Shown in pieces: positions 15,570 to 27,845 of a stretch of 64,000 nucleotides of DNA (positions are counted from its first letter, which is position 1; each line of letters opens with the position of its first letter). Under the pieces are notes generated by a model that saw only the letters and a list, made by a program, of their open reading frames with translations, had not been told where the DNA came from and did no database searches. The DNA is taken from positions 37,405-101,404 of IMG/VR virus record IMGVR_UViG_2788500220_000014; one strand, given 5' to 3'. The position numbers and the translations under genes are program-made. The DNA is from a virus (lineage: Duplodnaviria; Caudoviricetes).

Positions 15570-15713
15570 TTCATTTAATAGCTTTGCACGGTATATTGAA
15601 AACTGTTGGTACGATTGGCCTCCCTGGACTAGTTCAAGCTCTTCATCGCTTAGTTCTGTTACATCTTTAAGATCTTCTTGTGCGGCCTGAGGCTTATTTG
15701 TTTTCATCTTCAT
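15522..15713 (-). CDS. double-glycine-leader peptide (bacteriocin/RiPP precursor-like)
   Basis: ELSDEELELVQGG followed by a 31-aa putative core. Confidence 0.55.
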   Translation of the reverse strand: MKMKTNKPQAAQEDLKDVTELSDEELELVQGGQSYQQFSIYRAKLLNESGIKLNRYRIFETKM

Positions 15714-15945
15714 CTTCTTTTTGAGACTTTTTGCTCCACTTATCTTTGGGCATTAATTTTTCAATTCTGAAGCTTAAAGCTTTCATACCATTAACAGTAG
15801 GCTGTCCAAGGTCATCTACACCTATTTCTTTAACTGTTGTTCTTTTATTTTTAAAACGACCGGTAAGAATAATGTCACCCTTTTCTAAATCTAGCTCTAA
15901 CATTTCCCTTATTATCATTCTTAATTGACGCTCAGTAGTCTTCAT
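15694..15945 (-). CDS. leader-tagged protein (MKTTERQLRMIIRE)
   Basis: Shared leader; KGDIILTGRFKNK..GQPTVNG. Confidence 0.8.
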   Translation of the reverse strand: MKTTERQLRMIIREMLELDLEKGDIILTGRFKNKRTTVKEIGVDDLGQPTVNGMKALSFRIEKLMPKDKWSKKSQKEDEDENK

Positions 15946-16468
15946 TGTGGTGCCTAATTGTAAGAGCATGTTCCAATGATTGCTCAAGTTCTTTAGTAAT
16001 CCCTGTCAGAGCGTTGTATATTGCACCTAGTACTTTAGGGTCGGGCTCACCATGTGGACCAGCATATCCGAGCTCTGCTACAAGGTCCATTATTTGTTGA
16101 TATGCATCCTCATACGTAGTCTGATCTGCACCATCGTAGCCATATGGCCCTTTTTTGAGCTCTTCTTTGATATTTTTAATACGCCTGGAATATTGCTTAA
16201 TTGCATTTTCAGCAGCATAAAGGTACGGGCGGCTATAGTCTTTAGCAGGCATGCCCTCTTTTTCCCTAATACTATCTATATCATTTCGAAGTGAAAGAAG
16301 ATCTTCTATAGAGACATTAATATCATCGCTAGCGCCCATGGGACTAAGAAGCTGACCGTTTATAAAAGACACCAGCCTATCTTCACGCGATTCAAGACTT
16401 TGAAGGCTTGGCATGCCCACCATCGATTCTCTAATAATTTTCCTAAGCTGTCGTTTTGTAATCTTCAT
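15932..16468 (-). CDS. leader-tagged protein (putative head internal protein)
   Basis: MKITKRQLRKIIRES. Confidence 0.8.
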   Translation of the reverse strand: MKITKRQLRKIIRESMVGMPSLQSLESREDRLVSFINGQLLSPMGASDDINVSIEDLLSLRNDIDSIREKEGMPAKDYSRPYLYAAENAIKQYSRRIKNIKEELKKGPYGYDGADQTTYEDAYQQIMDLVAELGYAGPHGEPDPKVLGAIYNALTGITKELEQSLEHALTIRHHNEDY

Positions 16469-16765
16469 TTACCTGCGGTTCCTTGTTGCCGGTGAAGTAT
16501 GATGTTCTTCAGGGGGAATGGTCTTAGACTGCCTAACTTCTCTAGCGACAACCTCTAGAGCATGTGCAATACTCTCAACATATATAGGATTAATCCATAC
16601 ATCTTCGCCGATCATATCCTGAGAAAATTCTTCCTCGATGTAGTTCCAAACTCCATTTTGTACGCCACGTGAGATGCCCTCTTCAACATCCGGGCTCATC
16701 TCAGAAAGAAGGCGCGCTTTCTCTTCTTTAATGATTCTTCTTAGTTGTCTCTTTGTGGTTCTCAT
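16469..16765 (-). CDS. leader-tagged protein
   Basis: MRTTKRQLRRIIKEEKARLLSE. Confidence 0.8.
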   Translation of the reverse strand: MRTTKRQLRRIIKEEKARLLSEMSPDVEEGISRGVQNGVWNYIEEEFSQDMIGEDVWINPIYVESIAHALEVVAREVRQSKTIPPEEHHTSPATRNRR

Positions 16766-16806
16766 AATGTTATTTCCTTAAGTCCCGGTGCATCCCAACT
16801 GGGTGG

Positions 16807-17601
16807 TTACCGGCCTGCTGCCCGGGTGAAAATCTTGATTATCTCTGATAGCGCATGCGCTTCTTCATCATTGGCCGGAGGTTCATAAAAATAATATTCT
16901 CCGATCCACCGAGTTCCGTGTGGGCCTGGAGAAGGGGAGACAGCTTCGGCCATGGCTAAAATAATCTTGAGTACCCCTACCTGGGTCGGCTCCGGCGGAT
17001 CCTCTGGTAAATCTTTACTGAAACTGCCACCATAACCTTCGGTGCTCATAGTATATTCAACGGCTTTAGAGATGTACCCTAGAATTCCACTGGCCCCATG
17101 TCGCTCTAAAACATCCTGGTATCGGTTATCCTGAGGGCCTTTGAATGCTTTATGAAGATGAAAATCGAATTGCCTTGCAGTTGCTAGATCTGTCTGATAT
17201 TGATCCACATCAGCCTTGCCGCGTCCAGAATCCCACCAGCTCCCCTTGAACCATGCAGGTGTAGATATACTCTTCCTACCCTTCTTCCTGCCCTTCTTCC
17301 TGCCCTTCTTCCGAGGAAGAGTGGCAGCCAAAGTATCTAACCAGCCTGGTTGATTATTGGATATCCAGTCTAATTGTTCATCCCAATCCAGGTCTTGTTC
17401 ATATCCCGGGATTTTTTCCCATAAACCTGCATTAACTAAGTCATCTGCCAAAGCATTAGCGCCGTCGGTCATTGAATGCATATCCGATATTTCATCATAC
17501 TTTGCATATAACCTATCATATGCTGGCCCGCCACCCTCTGAAATGACCCGGGCCACTTCTTCTTTAATGATTCTTCGCAGTTGGCACTTGGTAATTTTCA
17601 T
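16807..17601 (-). CDS. leader-tagged protein with RKKG repeats
   Basis: MKITKCQLRRIIKEE; (RKKG)3. Confidence 0.8.
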   Translation of the reverse strand: MKITKCQLRRIIKEEVARVISEGGGPAYDRLYAKYDEISDMHSMTDGANALADDLVNAGLWEKIPGYEQDLDWDEQLDWISNNQPGWLDTLAATLPRKKGRKKGRKKGRKSISTPAWFKGSWWDSGRGKADVDQYQTDLATARQFDFHLHKAFKGPQDNRYQDVLERHGASGILGYISKAVEYTMSTEGYGGSFSKDLPEDPPEPTQVGVLKIILAMAEAVSPSPGPHGTRWIGEYYFYEPPANDEEAHALSEIIKIFTRAAGR

Positions 17602-18002
17602 TATACTTTATCCCTTTTCGAAAGTACTGATACTCCAATTGCAGAATATATTTCCGGACCTACATGGTGATTAACTTGTTTAAGCTTTATACCCTGCCAA
17701 TTAATCGGGGGCTCCAAATAATCAGTCGGAGGAAGTGCTGCACCCTCCGCTTTTAAAGCTTTCCATGCTATGTCCCTATCAGACTTGTCATCAAAAATAA
17801 CCATGTTTCGAATAGAGAACATCGTTTGCCCGCCTTTGCCTCTTTCTGATCGTTGTCCGGATTTTGGAAGGTTATTTAGAGGCTGGCCACCAAAGCGGTC
17901 TGCTATAGCAACAGTTGCAGACCCTACATCCCATTGATTTTCTGAAAGCATTTCAAGTTCTTCTTTAATGATTCGCCTGAGTTGTCTTTGAGTAATTTTC
18001 AT
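17601..18002 (-). CDS. leader-tagged protein
   Basis: MKITQRQLRRIIKEE. Confidence 0.8.
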   Translation of the reverse strand: MKITQRQLRRIIKEELEMLSENQWDVGSATVAIADRFGGQPLNNLPKSGQRSERGKGGQTMFSIRNMVIFDDKSDRDIAWKALKAEGAALPPTDYLEPPINWQGIKLKQVNHHVGPEIYSAIGVSVLSKRDKV

Positions 18003-18985
18003 TTTAAAATCCCAGCCAACCTTTGCCATTTTTCGATAAGTAGATCATCCCTGGTTTTTCTTGACTCTGTTTTTGTTGCATTTCCAAGAGCATTTCCAAG
18101 AGCAGTAAGAAACTTAAGTGTGCGTTTCTCATCACCAAGAGATTGTAGATCAACTTGTCCTGCAGTGCCTAGTGATGCTGAAGGATCGTTCAACATCGTT
18201 GCTGCCCACCGATGATGGCCATCAAGGATCTCTCCGTTCGTACCTGCCCAAGCATCTAGATCACCCCCTGCAATTTGGTTTTTTGGGTTCATTGCCATCC
18301 CTAGGGCCTTGTATATAAGAATATTTGATTGGGTTGGTATAGCATCGCTTGCAGGAACTGATCCACCCTTAACAACCTTGATATCATCATCATCTTTATT
18401 CCCATCATTTTCTTCATGGCCGGATGTCATAAATTCTTTAGATTCAGCGTCATCCATACCTACAAATGTATTGGGCGCAGGAGGTACATTAAACTTTCCC
18501 CTCTTAAGATTTACTTTTCTTTCCTTAAGGGCCCTGATGTTTGATACATCATTCTTTTGGACGGCTTCATTGTGTGTGTCAATATTAAACTTGCCTCCAG
18601 GCGAAAGAGCATCAACTACTTGATCGACTGAACCTTTGGCATCTTCCGGGCCAGGAAGAAACGGCATGACAGACTTAGGTAATCCAGAAGTTGGTATTTT
18701 TGATGCCAACGTTTTGATTCTAGAAGCAACTTCCTCAGGTCCAATTTTTTCTACCCACTCCTTTGCCTGTGCACCGTTAGTAGCGAACCACTGGCCTTGA
18801 GTTGATTTAACAATTGGGGCATTATCATCTCCGGAAAGTAGCTGATTTACTATTTCGATTGGGTCAACATCTTTAACATTTGTTGACTTATCAACTGCGT
18901 CGCCCCGAGGAGCATCACCAATTTTACCGGTTGATTTCTCCTCTTCTTCAAATAAGATACTTACTAAGCTTGGAATTTTTTTCAT
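17999..18985 (-). CDS. ParB/Sulfiredoxin-like domain protein
   Basis: IPTQS..ILDGHHRWAA; ends IEKWQRLAGILK. Confidence 0.75.
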   Translation of the reverse strand: MKKIPSLVSILFEEEEKSTGKIGDAPRGDAVDKSTNVKDVDPIEIVNQLLSGDDNAPIVKSTQGQWFATNGAQAKEWVEKIGPEEVASRIKTLASKIPTSGLPKSVMPFLPGPEDAKGSVDQVVDALSPGGKFNIDTHNEAVQKNDVSNIRALKERKVNLKRGKFNVPPAPNTFVGMDDAESKEFMTSGHEENDGNKDDDDIKVVKGGSVPASDAIPTQSNILIYKALGMAMNPKNQIAGGDLDAWAGTNGEILDGHHRWAATMLNDPSASLGTAGQVDLQSLGDEKRTLKFLTALGNALGNATKTESRKTRDDLLIEKWQRLAGILK

Positions 18986-19455
18986 CCTGATGTCCTCATC
19001 GGTCCTTCAATTATTTCATTTAAAAATGCCACAAAATTCTTAGCACTTTTCTTATCGTGGATGCTAAGTGCTTTTTTATCATCGACATATATTTCCATGG
19101 TCAGACCATCCCATGTCCACGCAGCCTTAATATTACCAATCCCGATTATGTCCTCTTCCCTAACTGGATCCCGCGGGCCAGATTGTTCTTTTTTCTTTTT
19201 GCCCCAAAACTCAGATAATTTACGAATTTCTTCTTTAATAAGTGCAGAAGGATCATGACGGCGCATACCAGAATCCCACCTAACCGAAATTTGCCTGTCT
19301 CTTTTATTTGATTTTGCAACAACACGGCCAACACCAAGGTGCGCATCGTCCTTATGGCGAACGATATCACCTACCGTGATGTTAAACGTAGGCCTAGACT
19401 CTGAGAATAATTCTTCTCTAATAATCTTTCTTAGTTGATGCTTGGTAATTTTCAT
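18982..19455 (-). CDS. leader-tagged protein with SH3/KOW-like domain
   Basis: MKITKHQLRKIIREE + VGDIVRH..LGVGRVV..SVRW. Confidence 0.8.
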   Translation of the reverse strand: MKITKHQLRKIIREELFSESRPTFNITVGDIVRHKDDAHLGVGRVVAKSNKRDRQISVRWDSGMRRHDPSALIKEEIRKLSEFWGKKKKEQSGPRDPVREEDIIGIGNIKAAWTWDGLTMEIYVDDKKALSIHDKKSAKNFVAFLNEIIEGPMRTSG

Positions 19456-19456
19456 C

Positions 19457-19801
19457 TTACCATTCTCCGGTGTCATTGCCATCTTCATCTAGCATTACAG
19501 CATATTCTTCAAGCTCTTCATATGTTGTAGCCATAGTAGTAGAAAAACTATTCGGATATTCATCAGATGCAGCAGCTGACATTATATGGCCATACCAATA
19601 GCGGAACGCCCTGGCTTCAATCGACCTATCTGGTACTAGCTTGGTAATCTCGAGCGCTTCTTCTGTTAGTACTTGAATCTCTTGCATGATATCCTTAAAT
19701 CGATATAGATCATTCTCATCTAGGCCCTCAAATTGCTCTTTAAGAATACGAGATTTTTCCTCACGAATTATTCTTCTTAACTGTCGTTTTGTAATTTTCA
19801 T
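19457..19801 (-). CDS. leader-tagged protein
   Basis: MKITKRQLRRIIREE. Confidence 0.8.
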   Translation of the reverse strand: MKITKRQLRRIIREEKSRILKEQFEGLDENDLYRFKDIMQEIQVLTEEALEITKLVPDRSIEARAFRYWYGHIMSAAASDEYPNSFSTTMATTYEELEEYAVMLDEDGNDTGEW

Positions 19802-20103
19802 TATCGTAACCCAAACTCTATAAGCTCTTCAGCATCATCAATAATCGTGCCAAGATAATCTGACAACTCTGGGAACAGTTCATAAAGAGATTCTTCCACC
19901 TCTTCGCGATCGCCTCCACCCTTAAAGATATTAACAGCTGTATCCCTGGCTTCCATTTCTATGTCCATGATCTTGGGTTCCCAGCCACCCTCAGGTTCTC
20001 CATACATGGTACCATCATGTGGATTAGCCTCACGATCAATAAAGAAATCTTTCTCAATAGTTTCCTTGATGATTCTTCTTAGTTGCTTTTTTGTAATTTT
20101 CAT
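19801..20103 (-). CDS. leader-tagged protein
   Basis: MKITKKQLRRIIKET. Confidence 0.8.
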   Translation of the reverse strand: MKITKKQLRRIIKETIEKDFFIDREANPHDGTMYGEPEGGWEPKIMDIEMEARDTAVNIFKGGGDREEVEESLYELFPELSDYLGTIIDDAEELIEFGLR

Positions 20104-20104
20104 T

Positions 20105-20893
20105 TTAAAGTTCCCTGTATATATCTGCTAATGCTTGCTTCAAATACTTTCGGCCATTTTCCCCTAGCTCAGCAAATAATTGCGATAAAATCTCCTTTAC
20201 AGAATCCTTATTGTTCGCTGCGTCAATAGCAACTAGAAGAGGTTGTACGCCACTTTTATCTAGTGCAATGTCTGCTTTTTTTCCTGCAGCAGTCTTTGAT
20301 TCTGCACCGGCATCAGCAGAAGCTTCATCTTCAGGATTTTCTTTAAGAATTTCTTCTCTAATAATTTGCCGTAAGCGGCTTTTCGTTATATTCATTGCTT
20401 TATTCTCCCATTGTCTTTGTGCACTTTTTGTTTTTAGACGTTTACCCATTCCAGATCTCTGAGGTACTTTTTCATAGTCTAAATCTAATCCAGGTACCTG
20501 TAGGGCTGCTAGCTCCTGTCGCTCTTTTTCCCACTCTGCTTCACGCTCAGCATTAAATGCATCATCTTCTGCCATAGCTTCAGCTTCACGATCTAAGTCA
20601 TCAATCGCCGCTTGAACTTGTGCGACTGTCTCAAACCTTGCCCAACGTGGTCGGATACCATGAAGCGATTTGAATGCGTCTGAGTACGTCTGAGATAAGA
20701 TCTCAAAGGCTAACTCTTCTCCAGTTGTAATACCTCTCTCTTCCCAAAATGACTGATCTGTAACAAGGGTCATACCATATAATCCTGGGCCAGCTTGGGC
20801 ATTAATTTTCTCAGCTTCTTCCTGTGCAGTAGGTGCAAAGCCTGACATAGCTTCACGAATTATCTTCTCTAGTTTTTTGCGACTAATTCTCAT
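20105..20893 (-). CDS. leader-tagged protein with second internal leader
   Basis: MRISRKKLEKIIRE; YSDAFKSLHGIRPRW; internal MNITKSRLRQIIREEILKE. Confidence 0.8.
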   Translation of the reverse strand: MRISRKKLEKIIREAMSGFAPTAQEEAEKINAQAGPGLYGMTLVTDQSFWEERGITTGEELAFEILSQTYSDAFKSLHGIRPRWARFETVAQVQAAIDDLDREAEAMAEDDAFNAEREAEWEKERQELAALQVPGLDLDYEKVPQRSGMGKRLKTKSAQRQWENKAMNITKSRLRQIIREEILKENPEDEASADAGAESKTAAGKKADIALDKSGVQPLLVAIDAANNKDSVKEILSQLFAELGENGRKYLKQALADIYREL

Positions 20894-20902
20894 GTTATCA
20901 TC

Positions 20903-22279
20903 CTAATCATAATATGGCATCATCGGTGGACCCTGGGGCGGCCGGCGGCCCAAGGTTTTTCCTGCTCTTCTGTTCAGGAAGTCTAAAAATTTTGGAACAT
21001 CAATCTGATCTTTTGGAACAGCCACCTCACCAACACCATGTGATATACTATCTGGTGCGGAAAGCCTTATATACCTCTTATACTCTTTCCATCCTAGGGT
21101 CTTTAAATCCTCAGGGGTGACCGTGGATGTAAAATGGTTTGCCAATAGTTCTAGCCATTCTTTATCTGGGTCAGATGTTATAGCACTACTTTGTCGAGCT
21201 TTTTCTATTTTCCACGCTTCATTTTCTATTGCATCAGTGTCACGACGTGTCACACCATTGCTGTACAATAGATCTGCTAGTTCACTATCATCTAAAAATA
21301 CTGGTAAATCAGACCACCCAAATATTGGCAATAATATCTCTGCAGCCTCCTTATATTTTTTTGCTTTGGCAAGTGGAACTACGACAGCTGCAATTTCATC
21401 ATCACTATTCTTTGCAGTAAGGGTTTCATTAATGATCCCTGCTATCTTTAAAATCCTATTATATGAAGCGGCAATCGTTTCTTTAGCAGGATCTTCACCT
21501 GATATCCATTCTCCATATTTCTTAATATATTTTGAGACTCCGTTGCTAATTCCTGTGTATACTGTATCAGCAACAATATCCTTGAATATCTGTTTACTAG
21601 GCCGGCTATTACCATACCCAAAACTATAAGAGCTCTTATTTTCATCTGGCAACGAGCTATATAAATCCGCAACTTCCTTACTGTCAGCCCACTCGGTATA
21701 GCCTGATGCGATATCTGCTGAGGCATCTTGCCCGTATTGAAGCACATAATCTCCGGGGCTATCCCATTGTTGGTAGCTGCTTCCATCTTGCCACATCTTA
21801 GGATTATTATAGGCATCATGCATAGTATCCATGGCCCAATCTTCTCCGCCGGCTTCAGCATCATTCAATATTTTTTCTTTGAGAGCTTCATATTTTTCTT
21901 CAGCTTCTTCTTCCTGGCGCTTTTCTTCAGCTTCAGCTTCATCTTCCCTGGCAAAATGCGCATCCCAGTCGTAGTCGGGATCTGACTCATCTGTAATCGG
22001 GCCTTTTTCTTCAGGCTCTATATACCACTGACTGTCTGGGTACCACTCTTGCTCTTCCATGGATTCACCAGCTGGAATCATCATTTCAAATGATTCCGGA
22101 TCTTCAACATCTGTCTCTACCTGATCACCTGGTTCGAGCTCATCCAAGAACATCTCCATATCAGCAGTCGTTTGAAATTCTGGAACAGTATATCCTGCAT
22201 CATACTCTTTAAGAAGTCTTTTTGCACGGATCACTTCTTCCTTGATGATTCTTTTCAGTTGTCGTTTTGTGATTTTCAT
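20903..22279 (-). CDS. leader-tagged acidic protein
   Basis: MKITKRQLKRIIKEE; internal RILKIAGIINE. Confidence 0.8.
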   Translation of the reverse strand: MKITKRQLKRIIKEEVIRAKRLLKEYDAGYTVPEFQTTADMEMFLDELEPGDQVETDVEDPESFEMMIPAGESMEEQEWYPDSQWYIEPEEKGPITDESDPDYDWDAHFAREDEAEAEEKRQEEEAEEKYEALKEKILNDAEAGGEDWAMDTMHDAYNNPKMWQDGSSYQQWDSPGDYVLQYGQDASADIASGYTEWADSKEVADLYSSLPDENKSSYSFGYGNSRPSKQIFKDIVADTVYTGISNGVSKYIKKYGEWISGEDPAKETIAASYNRILKIAGIINETLTAKNSDDEIAAVVVPLAKAKKYKEAAEILLPIFGWSDLPVFLDDSELADLLYSNGVTRRDTDAIENEAWKIEKARQSSAITSDPDKEWLELLANHFTSTVTPEDLKTLGWKEYKRYIRLSAPDSISHGVGEVAVPKDQIDVPKFLDFLNRRAGKTLGRRPPQGPPMMPYYD

Positions 22280-22577
22280 TATATTCCTCTTCCGGTATGC
22301 TACTTTCGACGTCATCAGCCAAGCCACGGAGGTCGGCAGCTAACTCATGCCATTCCGACGGATTCGTTTGATCCATTGCTTGATTTATTATGTCAGCAAG
22401 GGTATGCCATAGTGGTTGATCATAAGAGCGGCCTTTAATCTTAACGCTTGAAAGGCTTCCTCGTTGAGCATCCATCTTTGCTGCTGCGATCCCCATATCA
22501 GCAGGAGTCATTTCATTTATTAGCTTAGAATGTTCTTCTTTAATGATTCTTTTTAATTGTCGTTTTGTGATTTTCAT
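22209..22577 (-). CDS. leader-tagged protein
   Basis: MKITKRQLKRIIKEE; 3' end overlaps next gene by ~70 nt. Confidence 0.75.
   Translation of the reverse strand: MKITKRQLKRIIKEEHSKLINEMTPADMGIAAAKMDAQRGSLSSVKIKGRSYDQPLWHTLADIINQAMDQTNPSEWHELAADLRGLADDVESSIPEEEYNENHKTTTEKNHQGRSDPCKKTS
22235..22280. repeat. 46-nt perfect repeat of leader-coding DNA (second copy 24009-24054)
   Basis: TTCTTCCTTGATGATTCTTTTCAGTTGTCGTTTTGTGATTTTCATT at both sites. Confidence 0.85.
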
Positions 22578-23332
22578 TAGTCTAACCTTACGTCAATAAT
22601 ATCTGGCACCATACGCTTAAGTTCTCGTAAACCAGCTGGATACATACTTCCAGGCATCTCAACTACTATGTCGATTGCCGTACCGTTATCACCTAGTTCC
22701 ATTACAACACCTGACATTTCGTCACCAGGTTGTATTCCGCCATATTCATCTTCATAATCTTCCCATGCATCGAAGCCCATATAGAATGTACCACTGCTTG
22801 GGCTGTAGCCAAGATAAGACTCCTGCCCTTCGCTATATCCGGATCGTTGAAGATACTGCCAGGCCTCACCAACACCGGGGCCCTCATAAAATACCTGATA
22901 TACGTTTACTCCATCAACCATTACACCTTCAGGCCAGGCGGCACTAACTTGTTCTTCGGTAACATCTGGATCCGTAAGTTCGGCCGTGATACCACTCATA
23001 TTACTTTCAGAAAGCCCTTCTTCTGATTCTGCAGCTGCCTTAAGGGCAGCTTTAGCTCTTGCGCGCCGGGTTTCAGAAGCTTTTCGGGCCCGATAATCCG
23101 CGGGGGACTCATCACCATACGGATTTTCTCGGCCGTAATAGTCAGCCTGTCTCTCGTTCCGGGTCCGTTGCGCTTTACGTGCACGATAGTCTGCTGGAGA
23201 CTCGTCACCATATTCGTTGTCAGGGCCATGGAGTCGATCGTTTAATCTTCTTTGAGCCTCAGGTGAACGTTCAACAAGTCTTGAGATCTCTTCTTTGATT
23301 ATTCTTCTTAGTTGTTTTTGTGTAATTTTCAT
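22577..23332 (-). CDS. leader-tagged protein with duplicated YGDESPADYRARKA
   Basis: MKITQKQLRRIIKEE. Confidence 0.8.
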   Translation of the reverse strand: MKITQKQLRRIIKEEISRLVERSPEAQRRLNDRLHGPDNEYGDESPADYRARKAQRTRNERQADYYGRENPYGDESPADYRARKASETRRARAKAALKAAAESEEGLSESNMSGITAELTDPDVTEEQVSAAWPEGVMVDGVNVYQVFYEGPGVGEAWQYLQRSGYSEGQESYLGYSPSSGTFYMGFDAWEDYEDEYGGIQPGDEMSGVVMELGDNGTAIDIVVEMPGSMYPAGLRELKRMVPDIIDVRLD

Positions 23333-23775
23333 TCTTTCTGCATCCACTCGTCCCCCCAATCGAGGTCGTCCATCCATGAGTCATCGCCGGCGTCTTCGTC
23401 GTCTTCGTCGTCATCAAAGGTCCCAAGAGCCAATAGGCTATCCCTTAGGTCAGCTGGAGCAGACCCATCATCTATAGCCCAATTAATCTCATCCTCTACA
23501 TCGGTGGGATCAGGGCTGCCATCATCAGTCATTTGATCAATACGTTGAGATAGAGGGTGATCTGGGCCCAATACATCCCTTATGTCTTCCCACATATAGT
23601 CAACAGTGTCAGTCCGGCTCTCATACTGTTCCCAATGTGCATCGGCAGCCAGAAAATAAGGGTGCCTCTTCGGCTTCTTCTTCTTTTTGTTTTTCTTTTT
23701 CTTTTTCTCAATTAGAATATTTCTAGAAATTTCTTCCTTGATGATTCTTTTGAGTTGGCTCTTTGTGATTTTCAT
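23329..23775 (-). CDS. leader-tagged protein with poly-Lys tract and acidic tail
   Basis: MKITKSQLKRIIKEE. Confidence 0.8.
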   Translation of the reverse strand: MKITKSQLKRIIKEEISRNILIEKKKKKNKKKKKPKRHPYFLAADAHWEQYESRTDTVDYMWEDIRDVLGPDHPLSQRIDQMTDDGSPDPTDVEDEINWAIDDGSAPADLRDSLLALGTFDDDEDDEDAGDDSWMDDLDWGDEWMQKE

Positions 23776-24053
23776 AGTCTTATCCCCAGGTTCCGAGCGA
23801 TTCTTTCAAGCATTCCCTCAAGTTCCTCCGAAGCATCCATTAAATCATAGTCATCGGTACCATATGCTTCTTGCAGTTTATCAGCAAACTCAAACATTGC
23901 ATTTAAAAAGCCCTTTGTCCCATCATGTAATCTCCAGTAATCCTCACCTGATACTGCCATGGACTCATTTTGAAGTGAGGCTCTCTCTTTTTTACGGTCG
24001 CTTGATATTTCTTCCTTGATGATTCTTTTCAGTTGTCGTTTTGTGATTTTCAT
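23772..24053 (-). CDS. leader-tagged protein
   Basis: MKITKRQLKRIIKEE. Confidence 0.8.
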   Translation of the reverse strand: MKITKRQLKRIIKEEISSDRKKERASLQNESMAVSGEDYWRLHDGTKGFLNAMFEFADKLQEAYGTDDYDLMDASEELEGMLERIARNLGIRL

Positions 24054-24054
24054 T

Positions 24055-24291
24055 TTAAAATCCTCCTGCCCTAATTGTATCTGCTATATCGCGATCTGGT
24101 ATGCCCATTGCTCGACAGCGCTCAATGCATGCTGTGAGATCGTCTAACGCCTCGAGTTGATCTAGGCTTCGATTTACATATAACTCTTCATCGACGTCAT
24201 TGTATTGTTCACCATAACGAGGGGCCTCTTTTAGCAATTTAAGCTTCTCTTCCTTAATGATCCGTTTAAGCTGTCTCTTGGTTATTCTCAT
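24055..24291 (-). CDS. leader-tagged protein
   Basis: MRITKRQLKRIIKEE from ATG 24291. Confidence 0.8.
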   Translation of the reverse strand: MRITKRQLKRIIKEEKLKLLKEAPRYGEQYNDVDEELYVNRSLDQLEALDDLTACIERCRAMGIPDRDIADTIRAGGF

Positions 24292-24292
24292 T

Positions 24293-24394
24293 CTAACATT
24301 GCCCTTTACAGCTAGTGCAACCGCAACAACCGCAACAGCAACAACAATGACTGTCATTAAATAAATTTGCTAATCTGTGTAATACCTTTTTCAT
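24293..24394 (-). CDS. 33-aa Cys-rich peptide (metallothionein- or RiPP-precursor-like), absent from ORF track
   Basis: MKKVLHRLANLFNDSHCCCCCGCCGCTSCKGQC; AAGGAG RBS; fills the gap between two array genes. Confidence 0.7.
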   Translation of the reverse strand: MKKVLHRLANLFNDSHCCCCCGCCGCTSCKGQC

Positions 24395-24430
24395 TTTTAA
24401 TCTCCTTTTATTGTTGATTGGTAACCTTCA

Positions 24431-24808
24431 TTATACCGGGGTTCCTTCAATTAACCATGTAAATAGATGCCATGGCTCACTTTCATTCCAGTATTCAGAA
24501 TATCGATCAGCCCAATCTTCAAAAGCATCAGTAAAATCTTTATTAAGCGCTGCCTTATCTGGTGCGATTGTGCCAGATTCCAGGCCTGATATTACGTCGG
24601 TAAATTGGGATAGATCTCTCTTCATATCATCATACCATGTGGTTGACTTATCTTGTGGATTGATCTGTTCAAACCCATACATCTGATTAACAGTTTCGTG
24701 CCAGGTATCAGGCTCGCGAGGGCCCTGATATGGGTCGTCGACACTATCAAACCACGGGTCAAGTTCTTCTTTGATGATCTGCTTAAGCCGGCTTTTTGTA
24801 ATCTTCAC
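24431..24808 (-). CDS. leader-tagged protein
   Basis: GTG start VKITKSRLKQIIKEE. Confidence 0.8.
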   Translation of the reverse strand: MKITKSRLKQIIKEELDPWFDSVDDPYQGPREPDTWHETVNQMYGFEQINPQDKSTTWYDDMKRDLSQFTDVISGLESGTIAPDKAALNKDFTDAFEDWADRYSEYWNESEPWHLFTWLIEGTPV

Positions 24809-24809
24809 T

Positions 24810-25166
24810 TTAATATCCCTCCGGGCGGGCCCATGCAATTATTTCGTCATCCGACATATCTTGTGCCATTACACTCGATGCCTTTGCTGCGGCTACAAAT
24901 TTCCTTGAGTCTCTTTTTGCAAGAGAACCTGGTGAGATCGAAATATCCATCTCAGCAAAGTCTCTAAACCCTAATTCATATGCCATATGATCCAGGTCAA
25001 GTATTCCGATATCCAATGCCTCAGAAAACTCGTACCAATTGGAATCCTTTGGGGGATAGCCATTCACCGGTGATGGTGGGCCGTGCGTACCAGTTCGATA
25101 CTCATTAACAATATGGGATACTTCTTCCTTGATGATCCGCTTAAGCTGTCTTTTGGTTATTCTCAT
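24810..25166 (-). CDS. leader-tagged protein
   Basis: MRITKRQLKRIIKEE. Confidence 0.8.
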   Translation of the reverse strand: MRITKRQLKRIIKEEVSHIVNEYRTGTHGPPSPVNGYPPKDSNWYEFSEALDIGILDLDHMAYELGFRDFAEMDISISPGSLAKRDSRKFVAAAKASSVMAQDMSDDEIIAWARPEGY

Positions 25167-25167
25167 T

Positions 25168-25587
25168 TTACCATGCTCCTGGTGTACCTTGAGGAAAACT
25201 GTATGCCTTACCATACTCATCTTGTTCATCGAGGATCATAATAATATCCTCAAATGATCGGAGACCAGGAAGAGTATGATCGTATGCAGGTAAATTAAAC
25301 AGATTATGGCTTCGGGCCCAGCGTACAAACTCTGACATATCTGTAGGTTGTGGACTTAATTCATATTCAGGTGTACCATAATTCGGATGTAAAGAAATTG
25401 TATAATCATCAACCACCTTGCCGGTGTCATCATATACGGTTACAGATGCCGCATCTTCACTCATGCCTCGATAGTTGAGGATGTCATATTCACTGTGCGC
25501 GCCGGCTGGAATGTTTGACGATTCGTGAAGGAGGCGGGATACTTCTTCTTTAATGAGCCGCTTAAGCTGTCTTTTGGTTATTCTCAC
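25168..25587 (-). CDS. leader-tagged protein
   Basis: MRITKRQLKRLIKEE. Confidence 0.8.
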   Translation of the reverse strand: MRITKRQLKRLIKEEVSRLLHESSNIPAGAHSEYDILNYRGMSEDAASVTVYDDTGKVVDDYTISLHPNYGTPEYELSPQPTDMSEFVRWARSHNLFNLPAYDHTLPGLRSFEDIIMILDEQDEYGKAYSFPQGTPGAW

Positions 25588-25598
25588 CGTGTTGTCTC

Positions 25599-25922
25599 CT
25601 ATCGATACATATCGGGGTTTGATAATACGTCTTCTAACTCAGCAATCTTATCATCGATTGACATCATACCAAACTCAGAATCATTGACTGTAGTAGCACC
25701 CATTGCTCTTTCTGCTTCAAGCGCCTCGATTTGATCTGCCTCGAATCCCGGGGCAGAAAGTATCTTTCGGTCACCTATGATTACACCATCAAATGCTGTA
25801 CCTGAACTATAAGTTACATTAACGACATTCTCACGCAGCTTACGCCGGACCTTGGCCTCAGCAATCAGCTTAGCCTTCTCTTCTTTGATTATTCGTTTAA
25901 GCTGTCTCTTGGTTATTCTCAT
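25599..25922 (-). CDS. leader-tagged protein
   Basis: MRITKRQLKRIIKEEKAKLIAE. Confidence 0.8.
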   Translation of the reverse strand: MRITKRQLKRIIKEEKAKLIAEAKVRRKLRENVVNVTYSSGTAFDGVIIGDRKILSAPGFEADQIEALEAERAMGATTVNDSEFGMMSIDDKIAELEDVLSNPDMYR

Positions 25923-25939
25923 CGTGTTGTCTCCTATGA

Positions 25940-26365
25940 CTATTGTATTCTATATACCGCATCTAAAGTTGAGTTGTCAACGTCAACCCAGTCACCACCA
26001 TCCCACATCATATATGCATCTGGGCCGGCGCTATATGGCGAGTTCATATCATCCCACCAGTGAACCAGCGTGCCATTAACAATAAAGAATTCAGATTCTG
26101 ATAATAGTTGATTCTGCGTTGGAACTTCAGTTTCGAAGTCCCCAGGGGAATGATCTGCACCTAATAGCCAATTCAAAAGATTTTTCTCTAACATCATCAT
26201 GGCATCTGGGAACATAGATCTAGCATCTTCTAACGTTACCTGTCTATTGCCCGGGGCATTCTCACATAATTTACGCCTGACCAATCGTCGGACCTTGGTC
26301 TCAGCAACCAGCTTGGCTTTTTCTTCTTTGATGATCCGCTTAAGCTGTCTCTTGGTTATTCTCAC
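25940..26365 (-). CDS. leader-tagged protein
   Basis: MRITKRQLKRIIKEEKAKLVAE. Confidence 0.8.
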   Translation of the reverse strand: MRITKRQLKRIIKEEKAKLVAETKVRRLVRRKLCENAPGNRQVTLEDARSMFPDAMMMLEKNLLNWLLGADHSPGDFETEVPTQNQLLSESEFFIVNGTLVHWWDDMNSPYSAGPDAYMMWDGGDWVDVDNSTLDAVYRIQ

Positions 26366-26508
26366 CGTGTTGTCTCCTATGACTAATCATATAATAGAGA
26401 CTCTCACGACACCAGCTTATGTGCGATAAATTTTTGGATTGTGTGAGTCTCATTTTATTTTCTCCTCGTGGGCACAGACTTTACAATATCCCACGCTTTT
26501 CACTAAGT

Positions 26509-27303
26509 TTAAAATTCTAATTCAGAGGCCATTTGCTCTTCAGTTCCGATCAGGCCATTTGCTTCTAAGTTTGATATCAAATAAGCTAATGCTTCAGGTT
26601 CAAGCCGAACACCAAAGCTCGTATGCCATGAATCAGAAACATAATCCGGATCAATCCACCCAATGCCCATATGAATATCTTCAGCAAACTGATTATAATC
26701 ATCTTGGCTTATAGATAATTGATACCGATTATACTGTTCAAGTTCTTCTTTAATTAAATCTCTAAGTTGTTCTCTAGAAAACTTCATATCCTTGCTACCT
26801 TCTCCAAGTTCTGTTGGGCTTAGGTCCTGACTGTCGATCAACATGTCATCAATTGTGGCTAGGATCGCATCATAAGTTTGGCGTCGGACATCATCTCGCA
26901 TGTTTGTATCACCGAACCGACGGCCCAAGTATGGAACTTGTTCCCAAATCCATGCATTTGATTTCTGGATTCCCTGGCCACCAGGGCCGAAGAAAATATA
27001 TCCCATTGATTGATCTTCAAGCCCGACCTTACCAGGTTGATCAACAACTAGCCATTTTTGCTTAGAACCCTGTTCATCAATAAATTCAATTGATATTCCG
27101 GAATATCCTGAATCAAACATTTGCACATTTACATTAAAAAGGCCGGCGTCTTCAAACACTGTATCAATTTCATCTGCAAAGCTGACAAGGTGTGGATACT
27201 TTTCTTCATACTTGTCCATTCCCCAACCACGGCTCTTTGAAACAGGCATCTCATTAAGTGCTGTTTCCTTTATAAACTTACGCAACTGGTTAATTGAACT
27301 CAT
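26509..27303 (-). CDS. leader-tagged protein with internal leader
   Basis: MSSINQLRKFIKETALNE; internal MKFSREQLRDLIKEELE. Confidence 0.8.
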   Translation of the reverse strand: MSSINQLRKFIKETALNEMPVSKSRGWGMDKYEEKYPHLVSFADEIDTVFEDAGLFNVNVQMFDSGYSGISIEFIDEQGSKQKWLVVDQPGKVGLEDQSMGYIFFGPGGQGIQKSNAWIWEQVPYLGRRFGDTNMRDDVRRQTYDAILATIDDMLIDSQDLSPTELGEGSKDMKFSREQLRDLIKEELEQYNRYQLSISQDDYNQFAEDIHMGIGWIDPDYVSDSWHTSFGVRLEPEALAYLISNLEANGLIGTEEQMASELEF

Positions 27304-27412
27304 GTACATACCCTCTTTACCTTATTAAGTATCATGTCCGATAGTAAATATACAGCCATAATCACTCGTTGGATACTAGTTTATCCACTTAAAGTGAATA
27401 ACCAAGAATTAA

Positions 27413-27769
27413 TTATATCAGGGGCACCTCAAAGTTGTTAATTTCATCTAAAGACTCTAAAATTACAATCTTAATCGGGTTTTTTTCTTGCACATCTTTC
27501 ATTTTATGGCGCGCAGCGTCAGTCCAATATCCCTTTACTTCAATATAGACACCATAATCAGGTAAATAGAAGTCAGGAATGTACTTTCTCTTTCTTCCTC
27601 TGATTGTGTGATATAGGAAATGCATACTTTCATCCCTAACCCACTTTACTCCAAGCTCATCTAATCTTTTTGCGAAGGCTGTTTCCCATGAGCTATCCAT
27701 TGATACTTCAAGCCCATCAACGGTTGTGTATATTGATTGTTTGCTCCATAGCTTTTTTTTCTTACTCAT
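27413..27769 (-). CDS. PD-(D/E)xK endonuclease (phage endonuclease I-like)
   Basis: SSWE..YIPDFYL..IEVKGYW. Confidence 0.85.
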   Translation of the reverse strand: MSKKKKLWSKQSIYTTVDGLEVSMDSSWETAFAKRLDELGVKWVRDESMHFLYHTIRGRKRKYIPDFYLPDYGVYIEVKGYWTDAARHKMKDVQEKNPIKIVILESLDEINNFEVPLI

Positions 27770-27845
27770 TATACCCTCAAATTGTACCATATAATTATCA
27801 GCAAGTGCATGAATGCAATATAAGCACTTTATTGGATAAAATAAA

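Follow-up and report, generated by a model that had tools for sequence, protein, structure and literature searches.

The polymorphic internal-protein (IP) loci of T-even phages encode proteins that carry a capsid targeting sequence (Repoila et al. 1994, as cited in PMC2839356, PMC3012670, and PMC9026906). In T4-type recombination, less than 50 bp of homology suffices, and conserved repeats called PeSL excise and shuffle ORFan cassettes in a process that has been likened to elements at the T-even internal-protein loci (PMC2839356). Here, we describe an array of gene cassettes within a 64-kb stretch of viral DNA (C25:37405-101404 of a 33-contig assembly; IMG/VR record IMGVR_UViG_2788500220_000014), the whole of which is referred to below as the window. 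A cassette comprises a ribosome-binding site and a leader of 15 codons, followed by cargo that is unrelated between cassettes and usually acidic. The array lies at 15694..27309 on the minus strand and contains 22 leader-bearing reading units in approximately 21 genes, plus the leaderless gene g06; 20 of the leader copies are N-terminal and 2 are internal (in g10 and g22). We conclude that the leader is the coding-sequence counterpart of the cassette linkers already known in T4-like phages.

The array resembles the T-even IP loci in several respects: unrelated proteins have in common a short N-terminal leader that ends in a predicted head protease site, the locus is hypervariable with a content that differs among related phages, and a T4 gp21-type protease is present. 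It differs from them in having 22 cassettes rather than a few, in a 15-residue leader without demonstrable homology to the T4 tag MKTYQEFIAE, in cargo that is mostly acidic, and in the lack of promoter or stem-loop elements between genes; packaging of the cargo is putative here. The array also resembles the PeSL shuffling of phages RB49 and phi1 (Arbiol et al. 2010, PMC2839356) in that it is integrase free, would depend on general phage recombination, has short conserved repeats flanking ORFan cassettes, and shows whole-cassette insertions and deletions with end points in the repeats between close relatives, which here are contigs of the wider family. PeSL repeats, however, are intergenic, approximately 100 bp long, and built of a sigma-70 promoter and a G/C stem-loop (PMC2839356), whereas the repeat here is the coding DNA of the leader, either alone or together with its ribosome-binding site, lacks both hairpin and promoter, and gives products that stay in frame. 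No intergenic repeat of the PeSL type was found in the array, where the genes abut and the gaps at the junctions are mostly -14 to +17 nt. Integron gene cassettes likewise form one-directional, promoterless arrays of unrelated content, a resemblance of layout only, as the phage contigs here encode no IntI-type integrase and contain no attC-like folded sites. The orphan toxin-tip arrays of contact-dependent inhibition (CDI) and Rhs systems recombine at a conserved coding motif; they encode bacterial toxins, and the motif precedes the C-terminal tip of one large gene. As in those systems, a short conserved coding sequence would serve here as the in-frame joint at which variable modules are swapped, but the array consists of many separate genes, each with its own N-terminal leader. 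Taken as a whole, the observations are best explained by cassette shuffling at the leader joint together with use of the leader as a capsid tag, an account that we consider somewhat probable.

Leader DNA common to unrelated cassettes

The sole exact repeat of at least 30 nt within the window is a perfect 46-nt repeat (22235..22280, identical to 24009..24054), the flanking bases of which differ. On the minus strand, the repeat spans positions -1 to +45, that is, 1 nt upstream plus the 15 leader codons, of g11 (start at 22279) and g15 (start at 24053), and outside it identity drops to random level on both sides. The cargo of g15 is unrelated to that of g11. Moreover, three 41-mers at 25562, 25897, and 26340 match at 39 to 40 of 41 nt, including 15 nt of noncoding ribosome-binding site and spacer. 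These 41-mers fall within the leader regions of g19 (25543..25602, with the 15 nt of shared ribosome-binding site and spacer), g20 (25878..25942), and g21 (26321..26385), all on the minus strand. The g20 and g21 copies have a 20-nt upstream junction in common and are 90% identical over 100 nt; the extended leader of g20 continues down to approximately 25843, and the junction of g21 follows a 143-nt spacer rather than the end of a gene. Both sets of repeats thus bear out a preliminary description of this DNA, which had also called the downstream cargo unrelated. That claim held as well, as all-against-all BLASTP found no relation between cargos apart from an 18-residue leader extension common to g20 and g21. 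Recent tandem gene duplication was rejected as the origin of the array, since the cargos are mutually unrelated.

Similarity between leaders depends on their position in the array. A Mantel test of position gave r = 0.28 (p = 0.001) against leader DNA and r = 0.21 (p = 0.007) against synonymous codons, in agreement with an earlier impression that leader subtypes cluster by position, which stands except for g13 and g17. Two blocks on the minus strand each have a leader DNA dialect of their own: block B, comprising g11 to g15 (22235..24053), has an internal synonymous-codon difference of 0.29, and block C, comprising g16 to g21 (24247..26365), has one of 0.33, while the difference to other blocks is 0.52 to 0.65. 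The proposal that leader identity exceeds what protein constraint requires was likewise sustained at the level of pairs and blocks. Twelve of the array's own leader pairs lie within 4 nt of each other, compared to 0.77 expected when codons were shuffled within columns and the composition of the genome was kept.

Whole-leader haplotypes were counted among 339 leaders as pairs within 1 nt of each other, and only pairs on nonhomologous cargo were included. Within genomes, 7 such pairs were observed, compared to 0.09 expected from position-specific codon usage and 1.27 expected from a within-genome column shuffle. Between genomes, there were 44 pairs, compared to 1.9 and 16.7 expected from position-specific codon usage and the column shuffle, respectively. 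Where near-identical leaders precede nonhomologous cargos, identity is at background within one codon on either side. The g11/g15 haplotype is itself distinctive in having CTG for Leu, a codon used in 2% of leaders at that position, and the same leader with 1 nt changed was found in metagenome contig L134 on a third, unrelated cargo. We conclude from the excess of shared whole-leader haplotypes that leader DNA has a genealogy separate from that of the cargo and that copying between cassettes is required.

Another lineage of the family contains a longer repeated unit of approximately 72 nt, composed of a 27-nt upstream element and the leader, which recurs near-identically within and between contigs with unrelated flanks (L022:1518, L024:1225 and 2273, L073:2628, L104:31, and L076:5500). 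For the L022 group, a junction element that stops translation in every frame was considered and rejected, as inspection by eye placed the three stops in one frame.

Rearranged modules and breakpoints among relatives

More than 120 IMG/VR stretches contained the leader DNA pattern, and many of these were on contigs of 184 to 293 kb. Protein relatives indicated that g11 is a fusion of two modules, module A (residues 16 to approximately 272) and module B, joined at a decayed internal leader that ends in I-N-E (21425..21460, minus strand; relatives in L137). In relatives, modules A and B are separate, leader-headed genes. In some phages, module A is alone and directly preceded by a leader; in others, it comes after the g22 N-terminal module or different modules, and the leader at the joint is intact or decayed. 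Module B either has a leader of its own or is fused ahead of a ParB-like domain. Similarly, g10 is a two-cassette fusion with an intact internal leader (20351..20395, minus strand), the second module of which is a separate gene in L134. The g22 gene also has an internal leader (26743..26787, minus strand); its N-terminal module precedes module A in relatives, and its C-terminal module stands as a unit of its own behind a leader in L146, where the 5′ end is open at the contig edge.

Module A was located in metagenomes (sixteen loci), viral contigs (two loci), and a genome (one locus), and these loci also carry homologues of g01, g03, g07, g10, g12, g13, and g22 in altered order. Cassette order is scrambled across L131 to L146, and the only adjacency among these loci that resembles the array is module A followed by g10 in L132, the nearest relative. 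Neighboring cassettes in L132 match their array counterparts at 39%, 64%, and 87% identity, and homology between g10 and L132 (87% amino acid identity) begins just past the g10 leader. No relative of the array closer than approximately 60 to 87% amino acid identity was found in any collection searched. Specifically, no close relative was found in viral contigs by g11 alone, megablast of the array gave no match in phage records, GTDB yielded only chance-level matches of 34 to 67 nt, genome contigs yielded one relative at 55%, and the array was present only once in the assembly. None of the relatives examined had the same array content. We conclude from the scrambled, split, and fused modules that array content is far from fixed, as the preliminary description had led us to expect: relatives reorder, split, and fuse the same cargo modules, and a leader is always at the joint.

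Breakpoints were analyzed in pairs of family contigs that are 85 to 99.6% identical in nucleotide sequence, because no close relative of this array was found. Homology breakpoints fell inside a leader in 37 of 227 cases, compared to 9.9 ± 2.9 expected and a maximum of 21 in 1,000 randomizations. Among 12 clean cassette insertions or deletions (indels), 8, which represent 7 independent events, had a junction overlap of 33 to 63 nt that corresponded exactly to leader-coding DNA. In a comparison of L144 and L145, the flanks of which are 97 to 99.6% identical, an 860-nt unaligned insertion was present in one and absent from the other, and the switch was located within the leader's first 16 nt. The expectation that breakpoints between related genomes would lie inside leader DNA is supported, with leader-exact junctions in two-thirds of the clean indels, for family contigs other than the array itself.

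Proposed recombination at the leader and its alternatives

The phage encodes a candidate recombination enzyme, as a RecA/UvsX-like gene is present at C13:14908-15711 of the same assembly. No tyrosine integrase was found on contigs C25, C13, C16, and C6, and all seven Phage_integrase matches were on host-like contigs. Leader DNA contains no hairpins, and the single-stranded DNA folds of eight junctions had energies of -0.5 to -2.4 kcal/mol with z scores of -0.55 to +1.21. Hairpins like those of attC sites or PeSL repeats were rejected on the basis of these folds. The array is thus integrase free, as originally proposed.

Because the cassettes abut with no spacers between them, they have no sequence in common other than leader-coding DNA, in some cases extended by the ribosome-binding site, and this DNA always lies in the same reading frame. 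The general homologous recombination of the phage would therefore use the leader as its joint. A UvsX-type enzyme would act without an integrase, and short conversion patches would copy whole leader haplotypes onto unrelated cassettes. Leader-to-leader exchange would delete, insert, fuse, and reorder cassettes, both within a genome and between co-infecting relatives, and every product would remain in frame. We infer that crossovers begin inside leader DNA, as opposed to being filtered by selection, and that leader-to-leader events occur in this particular array. The earlier view that the array both swaps cargo and expands by recombination at the leader divides in two: scrambled relatives and leader-exact indels of the family argue for swapping, but expansion by unequal crossover finds no counterpart, as all-against-all BLASTP detected no duplicated cargo in the array. 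We propose, tentatively and as a possibility to be entertained rather than a probable fact, that the leader is a dual element, the peptide of which addresses cargo to the prohead and supplies a protease site and the DNA of which is a portable, in-frame recombination linker. In that case, rearrangement would be nearly neutral, as cleavage at each leader would release almost the same mature proteins from fused as from split cassettes.

Several observations weigh against recombination at the leader. The overlap is only 1 to 14 nt in 4 of the 12 clean indels, and any whole-cassette indel yields a leader-length overlap, wherever in the repeat unit the break fell. BLAST matches tend to stop at conserved islands, which inflates the breakpoint enrichment, and selection for intact cassettes could also put breakpoints at leaders. 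One crossover alone would not give leaders that are identical between unrelated flanks on both sides; conversion patches or repeated events are needed. Moreover, an exact match of at least 20 nt is present in 11 of 231 own leader pairs, and one of at least 30 nt is present in a single pair (46 nt); activity in the array would therefore concentrate in blocks B and C. The neighbor effect in 16 foreign arrays is weak (0.640 versus 0.621, P = 0.053). Lastly, synonymous identity beyond protein constraint, which was sustained for pairs and blocks, failed for the array as a whole. The fraction of same-residue positions with the same codon is 0.476 within the array, which exceeds the expectation from cargo usage (0.386) but equals that from the pooled usage of the leaders (0.458) and is no higher than the value of 0.484 obtained against 265 leaders from other genomes. 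Array-wide concerted evolution or local homogenization was rejected on this basis. Since the excess is no higher than that against foreign leaders, it is mostly due to a family-wide, position-specific codon preference, which is for A-rich, unstructured DNA.

An alternative to recombination at the leader is that selection, and not the recombination substrate, places the breakpoints. Illegitimate or microhomology breaks would occur anywhere, only products with an intact leader and cargo would survive, and the near-identical leader pairs would reflect codon bias plus a small number of leaders duplicated recently. Cassettes are packed so tightly that nearly any other break destroys a gene, and selection could further accommodate the clean indels with short overlaps, the L144/L145 junction, which needs just 16 nt of identity, and the lack of array-wide homogenization among leader pairs that are mostly poor homologous substrates. 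Less easily accommodated are the whole-leader haplotypes that unrelated cargos share 3 to 80 times above codon-preserving nulls, both within and between genomes, an excess that requires copying of leader DNA from one cassette to another. Seven independent indels that end at homologous positions in two leaders, and the UvsX-type recombinase encoded by the phage, also count against selection alone, and we judge it an unlikely explanation that nonetheless deserves serious weight.

Selection might instead act at the nucleotide level, such that an A-rich, unstructured mRNA start or a regulator site favors a few DNA versions that arise convergently. Such selection would fit the 51% A content of leader DNA and its folding, which does not exceed that of shuffled sequence (z of +0.2 to +1.2), as well as position-specific codon preferences that are strong across the family (e.g., GAA at codon 14) and a pooled leader usage that explains the array-wide excess. 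Convergence is improbable, however, given that third codon positions vary freely (0.47 identity), that the g11/g15 haplotype carries the rare CTG codon, and that the haplotype excess remains when the position-specific codon composition of each genome is kept. It is also conceivable that the repeats or cassette orders are chimeric joins made by the assembler at the repeated leader, as every sequence is metagenome assembled and a second phage strain is present in the same assembly. We regard such an artifact as very improbable: the same pattern is seen in many contigs that are independent and come from different samples, each fused protein with an internal leader is encoded in one uninterrupted frame, and a 99-nt overlap between C25 and C6 suggests, if overlap length reflects word size, an assembly word size well above 46 nt.

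If leader DNA is the joint, recombination at the leader would explain the means by which arrays of dozens of unrelated proteins, which are probably packaged in capsids, arise and turn over in large marine T4-type phages, and the array cargos would be candidate injected counter-defense factors. The ideas of the T4 IP locus and of PeSL shuffling would then extend to a coding linker that guarantees in-frame and correctly addressed products. If the leader is also the dual element tentatively proposed above, uncultured large phages would turn over a large arsenal of packaged proteins in a manner resembling exon shuffling and without a dedicated recombinase. The leader could also be used as a handle to find such cargo in viromes, and long-read variants joined leader to leader would gauge cassette turnover.

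Leader peptide, array layout, and host phage genome

The leader is of the type MKITKRQLRRIIKEE and is 15 codons long. Pairwise leader identity at codon positions 1, 2, and 3 is 0.79, 0.77, and 0.47, respectively, indicating that the leader is conserved as a peptide. When the assembly was searched with a leader profile, matches were confined to the array, plus one gene on C16. Residues 12 to 14 are I-[K/R]-E in 19 of 22 leaders, and R-E-x occupies that place in g02, g08, and g10a. The leader search pattern demanded [I/L]-I-[K/R]-E at residues 11 to 14, and thus the motif is present by construction in leaders collected with it. Decayed internal leaders, which fall outside pattern selection, retain I-N-E or L-K-E ([I/L]-x-E), a match at the level of sequence only. 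In the T4 tag, targeting residues are at the N-terminal end and processing residues are at the end of the tag (PMC9026906; PMC3012670). The leader and MKTYQEFIAE have only an M-K start and an I-x-E end in common and are too short for statistics. The leader had no match in the phage record collection or in PHROGs, including by tblastn of the extended leader, and a full-text search did not find the leader string in the searchable literature.

Contig C13 of the same assembly carries the assembly's sole T4-type head module, with genes for a portal, a Peptidase_S77 protease, and a major capsid protein. The gp21-type (Peptidase_S77) protease gene is at C13:52509-52931 (94 bits), and C13 is linked to C25 through C6. 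An S77 protease, 78 to 80% identical to the C13 copy, was also found in all five of the large IMG/VR contigs with a leader array that were tested. We conclude that the leader is most likely a capsid-targeting tag, the terminal I-x-E of which would be the cleavage site of the T4 gp21-type head protease encoded by the phage itself. Between the head protease and capsid genes of C13 (51281-52051, minus strand) are two small genes, in the place of the T4 scaffold-core genes, with N-termini that are loosely leader-like; the match to the leader profile is weak, at 5.5 bits.

The leader-coding 45-nt segments, all on the minus strand, are at 15901-15945, 16424-16468, 16721-16765, 17557-17601, 17958-18002, 19411-19455, 19757-19801, 20059-20103, 20351-20395 (internal), 20849-20893, 22235-22279, 22533-22577, 23288-23332, 23731-23775, 24009-24053, 24247-24291, 24764-24808, 25122-25166, 25543-25587, 25878-25922, 26321-26365, and 26743-26787 (internal). 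Cargo sizes range from 63 to 443 residues, and the isoelectric point is below 5.5 for 18 of 22 cargos. Comparison of the cargos with Pfam and PHROGs gave nothing above the cutoff. Neither promoter-like sites (25 versus 33 expected) nor terminator-like sites (4 versus 9 expected) are enriched in the array. Internal promoters were rejected, as promoter-like sites are below expectation and the gaps between genes are tight.

The leaderless gene g06 (17999..18985, minus strand) encodes a ParB-like cargo, relatives of which in L128, L129, and L134 have leader-like N-termini; a fused form, P0016, also has the leader that g06 lacks. The C terminus of g06 is W-x-R-L-A-G-I-L, a motif that opens the next gene in L129 and is internal in P0016 and that may be a second conserved junction motif. 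The end of g12 overlaps the g11 leader by 71 nt (22209..22279, minus strand), and the overlap contains a TAT codon at the place where five other junctions have a TAA stop followed by A-ATG. This suggests that the overlap arose by single-base stop loss from TAA to TAT, which fits better than recombination, and the latter was rejected as its origin.

The spacer between g22 and g21 (26366-26508, minus strand; 143 nt) is the array's sole long gap. It contains a 36-codon open reading frame (ORF) that starts at 26453, is preceded by GAGGAG, has first residues that are faintly leader-like, and may be a decayed cassette. A short, Cys-rich, leaderless ORF is present between g17 and g16 (24293-24394, minus strand). 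Directly upstream of the array is a small PD-(D/E)XK nuclease gene (27413-27790, minus strand) that matches Pfam Phage_endo_I at 30.2 bits (cutoff, 29.1) and also DUF790. T7 endonuclease I is a Holliday junction resolvase; the position of the nuclease gene next to a recombining array may be due to chance.

The C25 contig belongs to a T4-type phage, which is uncultured and has a genome of roughly 230 to 290 kb. The start of C25 overlaps C6 by exactly 99 nt, and the end of C13 matches C6 at 94% identity. Moreover, C16:1-30500 is 99.9% identical to C25:70229-100728, and C16 runs 18 kb past the end of C25. We conclude from these overlaps and identities that the four contigs represent one phage population and, from the C16/C25 duplication and the C6 joins, that one large phage is present in the assembly as at least two strains.

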